Assembly: GCA_025812035.1 (NCBI GenBank)
Contig: GCA_025812035.1_4719.1
Origin: a phage
Reading direction: 5' to 3' (one strand)
Length of the DNA stretch: 64,000 nucleotides
This document shows, in pieces, positions 3,392 through 60,507 of this stretch. A model generated the notes under the pieces. The model did not search any database and was not told where the DNA came from. It saw nothing but the letters and a program-made list of their open reading frames with translations. The position numbers and the translations under genes were made by a program. Positions within the stretch are counted from its first letter, which is position 1, and the number at the start of each line of letters is the position of its first letter.

Positions 3392-6004
3392 TTATGCGTC
3401 CGGCGTAAAATCAAAAGGAACGTCCGTACGAATGATATCATAGCGTTTTCCTAAGAAATAGAACTCCTCGGGGACCTGACCGGGAACAATACTATCGCCG
3501 ATGAACTGCGGATATGCCCAGATGTACTGAGTGAGTCCTTCGAACATATCCAGGTTATTTGCGTGGTTACCCATGATACGTTTCCAAAGTTCGCGTTTAT
3601 ACGGTGTTTTAACATCGAACCCATAAAGCGGTGCAAGATCCACACCAGGCACAAATCCCAGGTAGTAGTGGATCTGACTGACCGGGAAACCAAGCGTATC
3701 TCGCGGAATGGTGATCGCTTGCTCAGCCTTGGTGACATGCGTCTCAATAATCCAGTCGTAGCACTCCGAATAGAACCGATCGAATTTCTCTGGATTATAC
3801 CACGCTTTGGGAAGATTCAATTTCTCCGTAAAATCGTTCGACATGATCGTCGGCAAGAAAGGAAGTATGCCCGTCTTTATTTGCGTGTATTTTGATTTTA
3901 CGCGATTTACCAGATTCCAACAAGCATAACCGAGCTGATCGTTACAGAACTCAACGTACAGATCGTAATCCCCTCCCGATAATGGATTATTAATATCACC
4001 GATATCAGCTGCGTATTTGTTGGGGTATCGTGTATTAAATGCCAGTTTGGTTTGGTAATCGTAAATGCACGGTTTATTGTTCTTCGTGTTAATCCACCAC
4101 CATGGCTCACCTACCTGCACGCAAATGTCCTGGACATGAGGATAGATAATATCAGCAAATGCTGTTAACACATCCCCTAACCACGCCATCGCATGTTGGT
4201 TACATGGAGACAACAACCAAGACGGTGGCGTATATCCGGTTGCTGCTATGTTTCCTTCCCAATCCTGCTGCGCCCACTCGAATGGACACGCTGTACTCAT
4301 CAATTCGTAACTTAAACTGATGGTGACAGAGAAATGGTGTTTTGCGGCGTATGCAGCAAAGGCTTCATGCCATGCAATACAGGGTGGATTTAGTACATCT
4401 GTGGTGTTCACCAGTAACTTACCCGCACTTGGTGTCCAGACAGTATCGTAGAAATGCGACATTCCGACATAGTGCACTAATTCATCCTGATAACCCGCAT
4501 ACACCAGGTTTTCAAATACACGCTCTGGCGTGATGTTGTAATGGTCATCATAAGCGGTTATTGCACGAAGCTCATGCGGTGTGCAACGGTGACGATTAAC
4601 CGTCATTTCCTGGTACACCCCATCGATAGGAAGAATCTCGATGGTTAAACCAAGATCGATCGGCGTTTCCAGATAGGTCGTTTCTGTAGCACCTTCTTTA
4701 TAATGTCGAGAACTCATGCTGAACATCAACGATGTTACCGATTCAAGTTCGATGGGTTCGTCAGCATAGAACCCCGCCATCGCATCGTTGAAATCGATCG
4801 TCACGGTCGCACTCGTACCGTCTTTAGAAACGTCGGTTGCATATCGGGTTAATGAGATATACTGGCGACTATCGTCTTTGTGAACGACGGTTAAAACCGG
4901 TGGGTTTTCAGTATCAGCAAAATTACGCTGGTCGCCAGTAAACGTGATCTTCGCTTTAAAGATCAAACCGAATAACGACGTCATGGGGGCATACGCAACG
5001 CAACCATGATCCAGTGTATCCGTTGTTCGCCATTCTATCCCGACCAACCCGTTAGCGGTATGACATCGCATATACGCGTTAAGTACCATGTCTTCACTGA
5101 CAACCGCGAAGTTCTCTGTTGACTGACCGTTGATAATCCAATACATCGGTTGCCAAAGATTACGAGTACCTTTTGCATAGCGGTAGGTTGGCGCGCCTTT
5201 TGGGTTGCCGTTATTAAGATGGAATACAGCAGTACCTTGGTAGTGATCGTTCGTATTAATCGGAACGCTGTAAGCGTCACCGATATCCGTACGTTCGACC
5301 TTAGCGACTGTTGCGTTTTCAAACAGTCCACGTAGCGTAGGAAGACCAATATCTTCAGGCGCGTTTTCTCGACGAATCGCATCCGCGATGCGATGGGCTA
5401 AGGCGGGGTAAATGACTTCACCTTGTTGCAGGTTCGCAAGCCCTGCGAAACGATCGGGGTCGATGCCAGCAATCAATAACTCGACATCACCCTTCGTTCT
5501 ATCGTCGCGGAGGTATTTCAGTCCAGTAAGATCGAGATGTCGAATTAACGACAACAGATCGTACTTACGGTTTTCAACAGTCAGTTCGAGATCACCTGCC
5601 CAAACCAAACTTCCCTCATCCGCCGCTACTCTAACGGATTGTCGGCCTGTGGTAGATGTTGTTGTCGTTTTATTTAATTGCTCTTGTAGGAAGTCGGTTG
5701 CGAGGTCAAAGGCAACGCCGTAACGGTCAGCGACGGCTTGCATGATTTCACGTAACTGGGTATCTTCTTCAATGATAATCTTGACAGGTATTCCCAAGAA
5801 CGCTTTAGTGAGGTCCCGCTTAACCATCGAGACGAATACGGATTTGTAATACCGGCTTCCATCTTTCCCTTTAAAAAGAATGGAAGTTGTTTCGGGTGAC
5901 GATAGAACACGTGCAAATTCAACATCGTCGAATGTAAGAGAAAGTCCGTTTTTCTCGTTGGTTAATCTTAATATTTCATTTTGCGCGGTTTCATGTAACT
6001 TCAT
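3392..6004 (-). CDS. tail fibre/spike protein, member of shared-N-domain family
   Basis: 870 codons; N-terminal ~170 aa (NEILRLTNEKN...FDDVEF...YKSVFVSMVKRDLTKAFLGIPVKII...YGVAFDLATDFLQEQLNK) is homologous to the N-termini of ORFs at 12028-12555, 12712-14466 and 51773-53227; large unique C-terminal domain. Confidence 0.6.
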   Translation of the reverse strand: MKLHETAQNEILRLTNEKNGLSLTFDDVEFARVLSSPETTSILFKGKDGSRYYKSVFVSMVKRDLTKAFLGIPVKIIIEEDTQLREIMQAVADRYGVAFDLATDFLQEQLNKTTTTSTTGRQSVRVAADEGSLVWAGDLELTVENRKYDLLSLIRHLDLTGLKYLRDDRTKGDVELLIAGIDPDRFAGLANLQQGEVIYPALAHRIADAIRRENAPEDIGLPTLRGLFENATVAKVERTDIGDAYSVPINTNDHYQGTAVFHLNNGNPKGAPTYRYAKGTRNLWQPMYWIINGQSTENFAVVSEDMVLNAYMRCHTANGLVGIEWRTTDTLDHGCVAYAPMTSLFGLIFKAKITFTGDQRNFADTENPPVLTVVHKDDSRQYISLTRYATDVSKDGTSATVTIDFNDAMAGFYADEPIELESVTSLMFSMSSRHYKEGATETTYLETPIDLGLTIEILPIDGVYQEMTVNRHRCTPHELRAITAYDDHYNITPERVFENLVYAGYQDELVHYVGMSHFYDTVWTPSAGKLLVNTTDVLNPPCIAWHEAFAAYAAKHHFSVTISLSYELMSTACPFEWAQQDWEGNIAATGYTPPSWLLSPCNQHAMAWLGDVLTAFADIIYPHVQDICVQVGEPWWWINTKNNKPCIYDYQTKLAFNTRYPNKYAADIGDINNPLSGGDYDLYVEFCNDQLGYACWNLVNRVKSKYTQIKTGILPFLPTIMSNDFTEKLNLPKAWYNPEKFDRFYSECYDWIIETHVTKAEQAITIPRDTLGFPVSQIHYYLGFVPGVDLAPLYGFDVKTPYKRELWKRIMGNHANNLDMFEGLTQYIWAYPQFIGDSIVPGQVPEEFYFLGKRYDIIRTDVPFDFTPDA

Positions 6005-12555: not shown

Positions 12556-12669
12556 AAGCGCACCCTCCTCCAACAATCAATTAAAATGCAAAACACCTCG
12601 AAACCAGAGTGCGATTCGAAGCAAGCGTAAACGGCCTGAACGACCGCATAAAATTCCGCGCATATTACC

Positions 12670-12699
12670 CCCTCTACCCCGACAAAGCGAGGTAGAGGG
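12670..12699 (-). promoter_or_regulatory. intergenic stem-loop (CCCTCTACC/GGTAGAGGG, 9 bp), followed in the transcript by AATATGCGCG
   Basis: perfect inverted repeat between gene 12712-14466 and gene 12028-12555. Confidence 0.4.
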
Positions 12700-12711
12700 A
12701 GAATAATACGA

Positions 12712-16524: not shown

Positions 16525-16551
16525 ACCCTTCCCGCGTAAGGCAGGAAGGGT
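16525..16551 (-). promoter_or_regulatory. intergenic stem-loop (ACCCTTCC/GGAAGGGT) followed in the transcript by TTATGCTGTTAAAC
   Basis: inverted repeat read directly; loop contains CGTAAGG, as in the 2368 family. Confidence 0.4.
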
Positions 16552-17991: not shown

Positions 17992-18225
17992 TTATTTGCG
18001 TTTCCCTATACTCCTCAACAATGTGACGATAACGAATACCGCTGTCATCAAGAAGAGGAACCATAACCCTACGTTAATTCGGGCGGCGGGTTCATCTACC
18101 ATGAAGAACATCGTTCCACAAAACCCAATAACCATCCAGGTTAAGACCATCCCTGTTAATCCCCGTAGTAGCATATGCCCCATCATGAACTCCTTCTTAC
18201 TTTTTCTGATAAAGCGACGATTCAA
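17992..18225 (-). CDS. small membrane protein
   Basis: 77 codons, two hydrophobic helices. Confidence 0.4.
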   Translation of the reverse strand: MNRRFIRKSKKEFMMGHMLLRGLTGMVLTWMVIGFCGTMFFMVDEPAARINVGLWFLFLMTAVFVIVTLLRSIGKRK

Positions 18226-18359
18226 GTTTTAGAAACATCGCTAACGCGAATGCGATTATTATCGCACGTATCCACATACCTCCTTGACAACTGTTGTACA
18301 ACATAAAGACCAGAGCGATGCCGCCCATATGCAGGCGGCACTTATCGAACAGTGTGGGT

Positions 18360-18587
18360 TTATACATAGGAAATTAATCGTTGAATGATTTTTACTTTGC
18401 CTTTACCTGGGCCTTTCTTGCGACGATTCAACAGACGGATACGGTTTCCAATTACGGAATCGCCATCATAATCAGCACGTAACTGTGGTGGGAGAGCAAG
18501 ATGTTCGCGATTGACACCCGGGTTGTTATAAAAACGATTGAAACTTAAAAGATGGTTAGTTGGAATCATTGTATTGTCCTTATTCAA
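18360..18587 (-). CDS. small basic protein with KKGPGKGK motif
   Basis: 75 codons; ...NRIRLLNRRKKGPGKGKVK...; motif shared with ORFs at 36428-36631 and 36854-37000. Confidence 0.4.
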   Translation of the reverse strand: MNKDNTMIPTNHLLSFNRFYNNPGVNREHLALPPQLRADYDGDSVIGNRIRLLNRRKKGPGKGKVKIIQRLISYV

Positions 18588-19835: not shown

Positions 19836-19872
19836 TTCACCTAGGTAATATAGCCGTGAAAATTAATGCATT
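19836..19872. promoter_or_regulatory. 37-nt conserved intergenic element, copy A
   Basis: TTCACCTAGGTAATATAGCCGTGAAAATTAATGCATT; shares an exact 17-mer GTAATATAGCCGTGAAA and flanking TCAC/TGCATT with the element at 49420-49456. Confidence 0.4.
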
Positions 19873-23716: not shown

Positions 23717-23744
23717 CGGCATAAGCCCTCCCATAACGGGAGGG
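23717..23744 (-). promoter_or_regulatory. stem-loop (CCCTCCC-loop-GGGAGGG) followed by CTTATGCCG box
   Basis: hairpin 23726-23744 plus box 23717-23725 in minus sense, between the stop of gene 23750-24178 and the start of the methyltransferase gene. Confidence 0.45.
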
Positions 23745-29840: not shown

Positions 29841-29875
29841 CGGCATAACGCCCGTGCCCGCCCGCAATGGGAGGG
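29841..29875 (-). promoter_or_regulatory. stem-loop (CCCUCCC/GGGCGGG with one G-U pair) followed 7 nt later by GTTATGCCG box
   Basis: read directly; intergenic between gene 29901-30533 and gene 29509-29820. Confidence 0.35.
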
Positions 29876-29900
29876 ACACAGGCAATACGCTTTTATTTCC

Positions 29901-31210: not shown

Positions 31211-32188
31211 TTACTTTTTCCTGAAAATCAATGTCGGTAAACCGTTCCTTACGGCATAGTACAACACTAAGAGGTTAATCTTACCAGCGGATACCGTAAG
31301 CATCTTACGACGACGTGGTAAACTAACCGGTACGGTCGACGCCATCGTCGCACTGTTCTTAAACGTTTGGGAATAACGTCGCAGCGATGCTTCACCTAAC
31401 AACGGAAGGAAAAGATCCTCGGTAAGAACATCATCGCAGATATACGTGATCGCAAGTAACGATGGATTCCACTCGTTCAGGAACTCGAAAATCTCGTTTG
31501 CGATACCCAACGCATTATTAGGAAGCGGAACCTCACGAACGTATTTCTGATTGCCTTTATCCAACAGGATTCTCGACATACAGTAATCGTGGATAATACC
31601 CGCAACGTCATCGGCTGTTTCTGCTGACTGCATCAACGCTTGTGCTTCTTCCCAGGCCAGTTGACGTTTTGTTTCGTAATAGGTTGGTTTCAATACCGCG
31701 TAGAAATCGTGGATCAAACGACCAACGTCCCCACGAGTTTTTGCTGCCAGCGCGATGGCGTATGCTTTCTTCTCCGCATCCGTTAAGATCTGATTACGCC
31801 AGAGCACATATTCGTCTAACAGCTCGGTGTATTTAGCCGTCCATTCAGAGGAAAGATAATAACCGATACTATCAATCAACTCGTGTGTTAAAACACCCAG
31901 ATTCTCGCGTCGTGGATCGGCCGACGGCTCGTAGACGAAAGGTAGCTTCGGTTTTTCAAAACCACCGGCTACAATGGTATCTGAAAAAGCGTTAGCAAAA
32001 ACACCCATCGGTTTCCACGACGTAAGGAGATCCTGATACAGCATCGGATGGACGTTATTAATCGCTGTGAATTTATCATCGAAAAGACTCACGCTTGGAT
32101 GTTCGGCATTCGCAAGCTCAAAATAAATTCTTTCGAGCAATGCCTTTACCGCATCGCGTGTCTTATCAATCGGGCCAACAGAAGCCAT
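31211..32188 (-). CDS. hypothetical protein
   Basis: 325-codon ORF; no motif recognised. Confidence 0.45.
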   Translation of the reverse strand: MASVGPIDKTRDAVKALLERIYFELANAEHPSVSLFDDKFTAINNVHPMLYQDLLTSWKPMGVFANAFSDTIVAGGFEKPKLPFVYEPSADPRRENLGVLTHELIDSIGYYLSSEWTAKYTELLDEYVLWRNQILTDAEKKAYAIALAAKTRGDVGRLIHDFYAVLKPTYYETKRQLAWEEAQALMQSAETADDVAGIIHDYCMSRILLDKGNQKYVREVPLPNNALGIANEIFEFLNEWNPSLLAITYICDDVLTEDLFLPLLGEASLRRYSQTFKNSATMASTVPVSLPRRRKMLTVSAGKINLLVLYYAVRNGLPTLIFRKK

Positions 32189-32202: not shown

Positions 32203-32469
32203 TTAAAAAGTACCCATGACGGATAGGGCAACATGGTCTTTGTTCGCACGTGCTTGTATCGACATATCGAGACCGTTTTTCTTAATATGCCAACGTGCTA
32301 CCAGTTCCGGCTGGTCAACAGAATACAGCCCTTCTCGATGTTGATTCAACCATTTAGCAATCGGATGCAATTTATCAGGATTAACCACACCCAATTCCAA
32401 GCCACCCGGGGTTAATGGTTTAGAATAAAAGTCAAGTGCGTTCCGTAAAAAGTCATCCTCGATACTCAT
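32203..32469 (-). CDS. hypothetical protein
   Basis: 88-codon ORF. Confidence 0.4.
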   Translation of the reverse strand: MSIEDDFLRNALDFYSKPLTPGGLELGVVNPDKLHPIAKWLNQHREGLYSVDQPELVARWHIKKNGLDMSIQARANKDHVALSVMGTF

Positions 32470-32582
32470 CGTAGCATACCTACCATGCCAATTATGGCAA
32501 ACAGTATACCAACAGCGCTATATGCAAGCAGTGCTTTAGCAACCCAAGATTTTATTTCAGCACACTCTTCATGGTTCACCAT
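32466..32582 (-). CDS. small membrane protein (38 aa), not in the ORF track
   Basis: ATG at 32582 preceded by GAGGTG; encodes MVNHEECAEIKSWVAKALLAYSAVGILFAIIGMVGMLR with one hydrophobic helix; stop TGA overlaps the ATG of the downstream gene (ATGA). Confidence 0.35.
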   Translation of the reverse strand: MVNHEECAEIKSWVAKALLAYSAVGILFAIIGMVGMLR

Positions 32583-32658
32583 TTTTTTCACCTCGTTTGG
32601 TTATTGTCTGATCTCATACCTTTACCTAAGCGTACCCCGCCATTAAGACGGGGGCTTA

Positions 32659-33033
32659 TCACCAGAGACGATTACCTTCCTCATCCCACCACGCGATTGC
32701 TTGCGTCGACTCAAATGAGTTAGGACGTAATACCATACCCTTACGGTCAACGATTAACCGCAATTCGGTACCGAACCATTCAATCGAGATAAACAAACCT
32801 TGACGAATGATTGCTTGATAACCTGATAGCCGGTCAAAGAGTCGTTGAAAGAGTTCATCGTGTTCGCACGACGTTAACGCTTCTGAATAACGTTGCATCG
32901 ATCTTGCATCAGTAGGTAAACGTGTTTTACAGTTCCACCACGACACAGCGTACATCAATGCGGCGTTACGCAACCGTAACGATTGAACCGGCGTTAGTTG
33001 CCGTCCTTCAACATCATCGATAATGACATACAT
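32659..33033 (-). CDS. hypothetical protein
   Basis: 124-codon ORF. Confidence 0.45.
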   Translation of the reverse strand: MYVIIDDVEGRQLTPVQSLRLRNAALMYAVSWWNCKTRLPTDARSMQRYSEALTSCEHDELFQRLFDRLSGYQAIIRQGLFISIEWFGTELRLIVDRKGMVLRPNSFESTQAIAWWDEEGNRLW

Positions 33034-33039
33034 TGCGTC

Positions 33040-33228
33040 TTATTCCGCGTTTGTTTCCTTAACATGGACACATTCCGCATCGATAGTCACACCGGTAGAA
33101 CGATTGGTCTCGTTGGTATAATCGAATCCGCTGTTGAACAACATTGCGAACGTGTTATTATCCATACGAGCAAAGGTCTCCGCAATACGATCGGGATGAA
33201 AATCGGTGCGGTTGATGGTCGATTTCAC
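33040..33228 (-). CDS. hypothetical small protein
   Basis: 62 codons from GTG with AGGAG 8 nt upstream; fills an otherwise empty gap. Confidence 0.3.
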   Translation of the reverse strand: MKSTINRTDFHPDRIAETFARMDNNTFAMLFNSGFDYTNETNRSTGVTIDAECVHVKETNAE

Positions 33229-39616: not shown

Positions 39617-39646
39617 CGGCATAAAAGCCTCCCGTATTGGGAGGCT
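39617..39646 (-). promoter_or_regulatory. stem-loop (AGCCTCCC/GGGAGGCT, 8 bp) followed by TTTATGCCG box
   Basis: hairpin 39626-39646 and box 39617-39625 in minus sense, about 65 nt upstream of the revised start at 39551. Confidence 0.45.
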
Positions 39647-39658
39647 CCATTAATCGGC

Positions 39659-47588: not shown

Positions 47589-47615
47589 CGGCATAAACCC
47601 TCCCCGAAGGGAGGG
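47589..47615 (-). promoter_or_regulatory. stem-loop (CCCUCCC-UUCG-GGGAGGG) followed directly by TTTATGCCG box
   Basis: hairpin 47598-47615 with a UUCG tetraloop in minus sense, box 47589-47597; between the phosphatase gene and the next gene. Confidence 0.45.
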
Positions 47616-47625
47616 TGATTAACGA

Positions 47626-49419: not shown

Positions 49420-49456
49420 CTCACGTAAGTAATATAGCCGTGAAAGGATTTGCATT
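49420..49456. promoter_or_regulatory. 37-nt conserved intergenic element, copy B, in the divergent region
   Basis: CTCACGTAAGTAATATAGCCGTGAAAGGATTTGCATT; exact 17-mer shared with 19845-19861. Confidence 0.4.
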
Positions 49457-53227: not shown

Positions 53228-53247
53228 AAAAAAAATAGTTAGCATAT

Positions 53248-53280
53248 CTTCCTCCCCGCCCATAACGGGCGGGGAGGAAG
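53248..53280. terminator. bidirectional terminator candidate (14-bp stem CTTCCTCCCCGCCC/GGGCGGGGAGGAAG) between convergent genes
   Basis: perfect inverted repeat; preceded by A10 on the plus strand (U tract for the minus strand) and followed by GTTTATGCGC. Confidence 0.55.
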
Positions 53281-53297
53281 GTTTATGCGCTTATGAC

Positions 53298-59580: not shown

Positions 59581-59633
59581 GAAAAATAAACAACAACATA
59601 AAACCCTCCCACCTCCACGCGGGAGAGGGAGGG
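59581..59633 (-). terminator. stem-loop with bulge (CCCUCCC...GGGAGGG) followed by UUUUAUGUUGUUGUUUAUUUUUC
   Basis: hairpin 59604-59633 plus U-rich run in minus sense downstream of gene 59652-60014. Confidence 0.5.
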
Positions 59634-60467: not shown

Positions 60468-60496
60468 CCTCCTCCCACCACATGGGCAGGAGGAGG
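60468..60496 (-). promoter_or_regulatory. stem-loop (CCTCCTCC/GGAGGAGG) followed in the transcript by GAUGUUUAUGCUG
   Basis: perfect 8-bp inverted repeat with 13-nt loop, intergenic. Confidence 0.4.
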
Positions 60497-60507
60497 CGTA
60501 ATATACA

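Follow-up and report, generated by a model that had tools for sequence, protein, structure and literature searches.

Escherichia coli AcrZ, MgrB, MgtS, SgrT, KdpF and CydX are small single-pass inner-membrane regulators of about 30-50 aa, and regulators of the AcrZ/MgrB type bind a larger membrane protein via helix-helix contacts. The 38-residue phage peptide described here is similar to them in its size, its one transmembrane (TM) helix and its short polar ends, and by analogy it may also act through helix contacts, although it shares no sequence similarity with them, comes from a lytic jumbo phage and is encoded by an open reading frame (ORF) overlapping the gene of a soluble protein, gp127. 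Type I toxins such as TisB, Hok, Ldr, Ibs and ShoB are likewise small, hydrophobic and helical, and they enter the inner membrane once the ribosome has released them. While these toxins are silenced translationally by antisense RNAs and structured leaders, the phage ORF has a strong Shine-Dalgarno (SD) sequence that is predicted to be exposed, lies in a uniformly transcribed string of genes and matches no toxin family. Small single-TM holins resemble the peptide as small membrane proteins encoded by phages, but the peptide has neither a charged C-terminal domain nor lysis-gene neighbours, and it is early-type rather than late. The coat protein of the filamentous phage Pf3 (44 aa), a model for YidC-dependent insertion, is another short single-span protein, acidic in its N-terminal tail and basic at its C-terminal end, which makes it a plausible model for post-translational insertion, whereas its sequence is unrelated and its role in the virion is structural.

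The closest described gene is gp128 of Escherichia phage vB_EcoM_Goslar. The window, that is, the whole stretch of 64,000 nucleotides that was analyzed (GCA_025812035.1, contig GCA_025812035.1_4719.1), is judged by its sequence to come from a Goslar-like nucleus-forming jumbo phage (Goslarvirus), as the DNA of the region and that of Goslar agree at 91.6% identity, with Goslar the sole match among 50,697 phage records. Goslar gp128 (Goslar_00128 / HOV27_gp128, QBO63921.1 / YP_009820813.1) is a 117-nt CDS, presented as 'hypothetical protein' in GenBank and RefSeq, and its product is MVNNEEYTEIKSWVAKALLAYSAVGILFAVIGMVGMLR. The translation of the 38-codon ORF in the window, MVNHEECAEIKSWVAKALLAYSAVGILFAIIGMVGMLR, is 89.5% identical to this product over 38/38 residues (tblastn E = 1e-14). 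Both genes encode 38 aa, occupy the slot between gp129 and gp127 on the same strand and overlap gp127 by 4 nt (ATGA), whereas the two peptides differ by four substitutions (H4N, C7Y, A8T, I30V) and the spacer between the SD sequence and the ATG is two A shorter in Goslar. Considering similarity and synteny together, we assign the ORF to the Goslar gp128 orthologue group. The preliminary description had called the ORF untracked; since Goslar annotates gp128, this holds only for the ORF track used there. The gene is already known: the reference genome annotates it, and a published Goslar transcriptome gives read counts for it. It is an ordinary gene of a familiar kind, a small single-pass membrane peptide, and the findings do not suggest an unusual mechanism. 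In the literature, a paper on 'gp128' concerns phiKZ gp128, an unrelated virion protein, and was set aside.

Start codon, leader and transcription of the small ORF

The minus-strand reading around the small ORF (AACGAGGTGAAAAAAATGGTGAAC) places its ATG at 32582-32580 and its TGA at 32468-32466. GAGGTG is located at 32594-32589 and extends as GAGGTGA to 32588, with a 6-nt A-rich spacer between GAGGTG and the ATG, and the 7-nt match bears out the earlier statement that ATG 32582 is preceded by a well-spaced GAGGTG. A 7-nt SD match at proper spacing is found at 11 of the 2363 ATGs of the window (0.47%), and the SD matches of the genes neighbouring the small ORF are 0-5 nt long, such that no gene nearby has a ribosome-binding site as strong as that of the small ORF. 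For comparison, the DNA of 20 related loci was fetched, and the comparisons cover 21 loci with 9 distinct ORF haplotypes; the SD sequence is GAGGTGA or GGGGTGA in 21/21 of them. The overlap of the TGA with the ATG of the gene at 32203-32469, also noted before, was seen again, with the junction reading ATGA. If the small ORF were left out, its neighbours would be 189 nt apart, compared with a 95th percentile of 135 nt for the gaps of the window in a greedy gene map. These features, like the hydrophobicity peak and the purifying selection described below, go beyond chance expectation. The features of the locus are listed in Table 1.

Table 1. Positions of the small ORF, its leader and its neighbours in the window
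Feature	Position	Strand	Remarks
Upstream gene, orthologue of Goslar gp129	32659..33033	-	124 aa, hypothetical
GC-rich hairpin CCCCGTC-TTAAT-GGCGGGG with outer AAGC/GCUU stem	32627..32658	-	begins right behind the upstream gene's stop; no U-tract
Invariant 22-nt block GTAAAGGTATGAGATCAGACAA	32604..32625	-	5' leader; contains TATG 32618-32615
Shine-Dalgarno GAGGTGA	32588..32594	-	7 nt complementary to the 3' end of 16S rRNA; 5 nt between it and ATG
Small ORF CDS, orthologue of Goslar gp128	32466..32582	-	38 codons
ATGA stop/start overlap	32466..32469	-	TGA of small ORF and ATG (32469-32467) of the 88-codon gene; 21/21 loci
Downstream gene, orthologue of Goslar gp127	32203..32469	-	88 aa, soluble, without family match
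Orthologue of Goslar gp126, virion collar-filament protein	31211..32188	-	325 aa, two genes downstream of small ORF

The mechanical ORF list begins the frame three codons upstream, at GTG 32591, which would give a product of 41 aa. This start was rejected, as the GTG is in frame in the window only and the spacer is 2 nt shorter in every relative, where it reads AGAC, AAAC or AGAT/AAAT. Because the upstream GTG is out of frame in all relatives, we take the ATG as the true start. The spacer of the window phage (AAAAAA at 32583-32588, minus strand) contains two extra A that are unique to it, and these account for both the 2 nt of additional spacing and the GTG being in frame.

Between gp129 and the small ORF, the hairpin is kept in all haplotypes, where a G/A change retains pairing (T.G or T-A). 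The 22-nt block is identical in 11/11 distinct upstream haplotypes, including that of a divergent Salmonella-associated lineage, and is unique in the window, and synonymous sites near it vary by about 21%. Its TATG, also invariant, lies 33 nt upstream of the small ORF, the SD sequence of which is unpaired in the predicted leader fold. The ATG within the block opens a 9-codon mini-ORF (MRSDNNQTR; 32588-32617, minus strand), the TGA of which is formed by the last three bases of the SD sequence GAGGTGA. Both this ATG and this TGA are present in all haplotypes; codon 7 varies freely (CAA, CGA, ATA, CTA), there is no usable SD sequence, and the mini-ORF is probably coincidental. Upstream of gp129, the gene at 33040-33228 (minus strand; Goslar gp130) is called inconsistently in relatives L005-L018, either with 84 aa overlapping a DUF4262 gene or with 62 aa from a later start, and only the 62-aa, GTG-started form is listed in the window.

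In phiKZ, TATG is the defining motif of late promoters, and transcription starts at its G (PMC4666361). In many intergenic gaps of the window, a strong GC-rich hairpin recurs with (T/A)TATGC immediately behind it, in the orientation of the downstream gene. We counted 13 hairpin-TATG sites, ten with stems of 8-16 bp; dinucleotide shuffles gave 4.3 +/- 2.7 sites. Examples are found at 12668-12701(-), 16525-16551(-), 23726-23744(-), 29843-29880(-), 39624-39648(-), 47597-47616(-), 53246-53282(+/-), 59604-59627(-), 60468-60496(-) and 2352-2416. In form, the motif is like a terminator joined to a TATG start site of the phiKZ type; however, the block containing these sites has ChmA-independent (early-type) transcription in Goslar. 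A scan for sigma-70 promoters and intrinsic terminators gave counts at chance level, with none in the gap upstream of the small ORF. A further motif, TATATTAC, occurs at 19845-19852, 49429-49436 and 60498-60505 (all minus strand), three times compared with 2.2 expected, which is not above chance. All three sites lie on the coding strand in intergenic gaps, two of them within GGCTATATTAC, and they may be elements of early promoters; upstream of the small ORF, the closest copy is at a distance of about 17 kb.

In the published Goslar transcriptome, the read counts for gp128 at 30 min after infection are 109/121/110 (Supplementary Table 2), a density of about 1 read/nt as for gp125-gp130. Its log2 fold changes on ChmA knockdown are -0.51/-0.12/-0.02; late genes fall by 4-7 log2 units, and gp106-gp159 are all unaffected (bioRxiv 10.1101/2023.09.20.558163). 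The flat density and the ChmA independence therefore indicate that gp128 RNA is made and that it belongs to a nucleus-independent, early-type programme. Reads are equally dense before and after the hairpin, which therefore does not act as a strong terminator at 30 min, and no strong promoter follows it at that time. The hairpin and the invariant TATG upstream, together with the collar gene gp126 downstream, had led us to propose that gp128 heads a phiKZ-type late TATG unit. This proposal was rejected, as gp106-gp159 are ChmA-independent and the reads are flat across the gap. Goslar gp126 (YP_009820811.1 = HOV27_gp126) is identified as the collar-filament protein in a 2026 preprint on the Goslar virion (bioRxiv 10.64898/2026.04.21.720040). 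Its gene is itself ChmA-independent in Goslar (log2 fold change +0.04 to +0.33), unlike the capsid, portal and tail genes.

The predicted membrane helix

The peptide begins with an acidic and variable N-terminus (residues 1-11), which is followed by a hydrophobic helix reaching to L37 and a terminal R38. The Kyte-Doolittle mean has its maximum of 2.21 in the 19-residue windows that start at residues 17-19 (covering 17-37, ALLAYSAVGILFAIIGMVGML), a peak matched by only 6/403 mechanically listed ORFs of 30-60 aa. For the hydrophobic 19-mers, the summed Hessa-scale value is about -0.5 kcal/mol, using scale values after Hessa et al. 2005. AlphaFold2 (AF2) on the family alignment gave one uninterrupted helix of residues 4-37 with a mean pLDDT of 86.5. 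The single hydrophobic helix named in the preliminary description is thus recovered both by the hydrophobicity scan and by the AF2 model. The sequence holds one C-terminal hydrophobic segment of bilayer-spanning length, as in small single-pass or tail-anchored proteins, and with R38 as the sole residue beyond the helix, its architecture resembles that of tail-anchored proteins. Based on these predictions, the peptide is likely to form a membrane-inserted helix.

Residues S22, G25, A29, G32 and G35 are invariant among the protein clusters of the family and fall on one face of the helix by helical-wheel arithmetic. This stripe of small residues weakly suggests helix-helix packing, because small-xxx-small motifs are common in TM helices. 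The flanks carry K11 and K16 on one side and R38 on the other, and counting these K/R residues slightly favours an N-in orientation, a weak bias; the acidic N-terminus would also allow an N-out orientation as in the Pf3 coat protein.

Among the products of gp123-gp134, only that of the small ORF has a TM-like segment. Searches of the peptide against PHROGs, Pfam, NCBIfam, PADLOC and PDB sequences returned no usable match, and the only family match was DUF4064 with 16 bits, compared with a cut-off of 32 bits. Elsewhere in the window, a 56-aa ORF on the same strand (18197-18367, minus; MYKPTLFDKCRLHMGGIALVFMLYNSCQGGMWIRAIIIAFALAMFLKLESSLYQKK) has two hydrophobic segments (Kyte-Doolittle maximum 1.91) and no obvious SD sequence, and it may encode another small membrane protein.

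Conservation and alternative readings

In a word-indexed search of a collection of 5.8 billion proteins, queried with the 41-aa GTG form of the peptide, we found 8 protein clusters of the small ORF product, all exactly 38 aa long. Gene calls of 38 aa for it are found on hundreds of public contigs, with lengths of up to 245 kb. The ATG, the single terminal TGA, the length of 38 codons and the ATGA overlap are kept in all 21 loci, as are the order and strand of gp129, the small ORF and gp127. A frame not kept in relatives had been set beforehand as the refuting outcome; across the 21 loci the frame passes this test, being intact, 38 codons long and marked by coding-type substitutions. The Nei-Gojobori dN/dS amounts to 0.19 over the whole ORF and to 0.11 in codons 12-38, which is similar to the 0.07-0.12 of the neighbouring gp126, gp127 and gp129. 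The excess of synonymous variable sites is significant for the whole ORF (binomial P = 6e-6), and it is not significant in the N-terminal codons 2-11 (P = 0.08), where residues 4-8 are variable. As all relatives are close, with at least 81% nucleotide identity in the ORF, the evolutionary depth of these comparisons is shallow.

The most distant lineage found is a contig of 244,573 bp filed in a Salmonella enterica assembly (L019; GCA_041342935.1, contig ABUDGX010000009.1), in which the collar protein gp126 is only 68% identical to that of the window and far more diverged than gp127-gp129 (82-93%). Gene callers left its 189-nt gap empty, and the 38-codon ORF is intact there at 3607-3723 with the SD sequence GGGGTGA and the ATGA overlap. 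Together with L020, this contig, a Goslar-like jumbo-phage genome, suggests a Salmonella-associated lineage of the Goslar-like group. Outside Goslar-like phages, no homologues were found by tblastn against the 50,697 phage records or in the 5.8-billion-protein search, an exhaustive HMMER scan of 1.84 billion representatives recovered nothing beyond the cluster of the peptide itself, and searches based on the neighbours gp127 and gp126 gave no relatives outside these phages. Judged by this distribution, the small ORF is a genus-restricted orphan in a genus-restricted block.

Several alternatives to a functional membrane peptide were weighed. The invariant 22-nt block and the conserved hairpin adjoin the ORF, so that constraint at the RNA or DNA level does exist nearby, and neither gp127 nor gp128 is among the entries in the accessible part of the Goslar mass-spectrometry table, which covers virions only (bioRxiv 10.64898/2026.04.21.720040). 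Both points would suit a stretch that is not translated but is a conserved 5' leader or RNA element of gp127, open by chance. This reading is very unlikely, considering that the 32 variable sites split 6/5/21 by codon position (chi-square p = 5e-4), that the 21 loci contain neither indels nor stops in the ORF while the adjacent non-coding stretch of 76 nt ranges over 75-79 nt among relatives, that Rfam gave no family match at the locus, and that the 7-nt SD sequence is correctly spaced. The coding signal might instead stem from an ATG-started antisense ORF of 53 aa that is present in the window (32485-32646, plus strand) and shares the third-codon positions; in that frame, pN/pS is equally low (0.21). 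We nevertheless rejected this ORF, since it is broken in relatives, being 12 aa long in L011, changing frame after about residue 33 or ranging from 53 to over 76 aa, and since it has no SD sequence (upstream sequence agcatacctacc). It would also cross the indel-bearing intergenic region and oppose 86 of the 101 greedy gene calls, which are on the minus strand, and its chance of being the source of the signal is close to nil.

Another alternative accepts translation and denies the peptide a function, such that the ORF would be a pure translational device delivering ribosomes to gp127. The invariant ATGA, the SD match of 7 nt compared with 4 nt for gp127 and the poorly constrained N-terminal codons are all in keeping with it. 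However, purifying selection acts exactly in the hydrophobic part, where codons 12-38 have 16 synonymous and 6 non-synonymous variable sites (P = 1e-5) besides their low dN/dS, the substitutions in the helix are conservative (I/V, A/V, M/I), and a device would not need to keep a 21-residue TM segment with its small-residue positions, so we consider it improbable. In the case of a lysis-timing protein (holin, antiholin or pinholin-like) that permeabilizes the inner membrane late, a small single-TM phage peptide with possible oligomerization motifs, and with the virion structural gene for the collar protein gp126 two genes downstream, would fit. Yet the Goslar transcript is of the ChmA-independent early type and not of the late class, R38 comes directly after the helix without a charged C-terminal tail, and no holin family in Pfam, NCBIfam or PHROGs matches the peptide. 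A Pfam scan of eight products of the block likewise gave no endolysin or spanin-like domain, gp126, gp127 and gp129 have no NCBIfam match, and a role in lysis timing is accordingly given little credence. We therefore prefer the reading of a genuine protein-coding gene for a 38-residue predicted single-pass, tail-anchored-type membrane peptide. Taken as a whole, this explanation is moderately probable, and that the small ORF is a real translated gene appears very probable.

Proposed coupling with gp127 and possible roles

The preliminary description had pointed to the stop/start overlap with the downstream gene as translational coupling, with which the invariant ATGA and the weak SD sequence of gp127 agree. 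The SD match of gp127 itself is AGGT, and its A is a synonymous-variable site among relatives. Because gp127 has this weak ribosome-binding site, coupling is plausible, and from the arrangement of the two genes we would rate functional translational coupling as somewhat favoured. Ribosomes terminating on the small ORF would then reinitiate on gp127, which would tie the output of both genes together.

At 38 residues, the peptide would be too short to be targeted while still being translated, and it would thus insert into the host inner membrane after its release from the ribosome. There, the stripe of small residues could pack against another TM helix, either in its own copies or in a host inner-membrane protein, and the peptide may tether or work with the co-produced soluble gp127, for which the AF2 model had a pLDDT of 53.5 and was too poor to use. 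That the peptide is a helix-packing modulator of a host or self partner is a tentative proposal, and modulation of host membrane proteins, to which the preliminary description had pointed, would be at most compatible with the early-type transcription class.

A more specific role would be that of an early, post-translationally inserting factor at a membrane stage of the phage. It might sit, for instance, in the leaflet of the early phage infection (EPI) vesicle that faces the cytoplasm, or in the inner membrane at the injection site. The literature names no phage-encoded membrane component for the EPI vesicle, and the gene is transcribed in the EPI-vesicle (ChmA-independent) programme. Together with gp127, such a factor might aid genome hand-over or block superinfecting Goslar-like phages. 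Because EPI vesicles are family-wide and the gene is genus-restricted, we place this role among the least probable ones.

Taken all together, the finding has little significance of its own: an ORF of the window that fell below the length threshold proves to be a real gene. Some automated callers skip it, as it is uncalled in the Salmonella-associated contig and annotated in Goslar. In a search for early Goslar membrane factors it would be a cheap knock-down candidate, though not singled out as one, and it encodes the sole predicted membrane protein of a roughly 5-kb genus-specific early-type block in a nucleus-forming phage.
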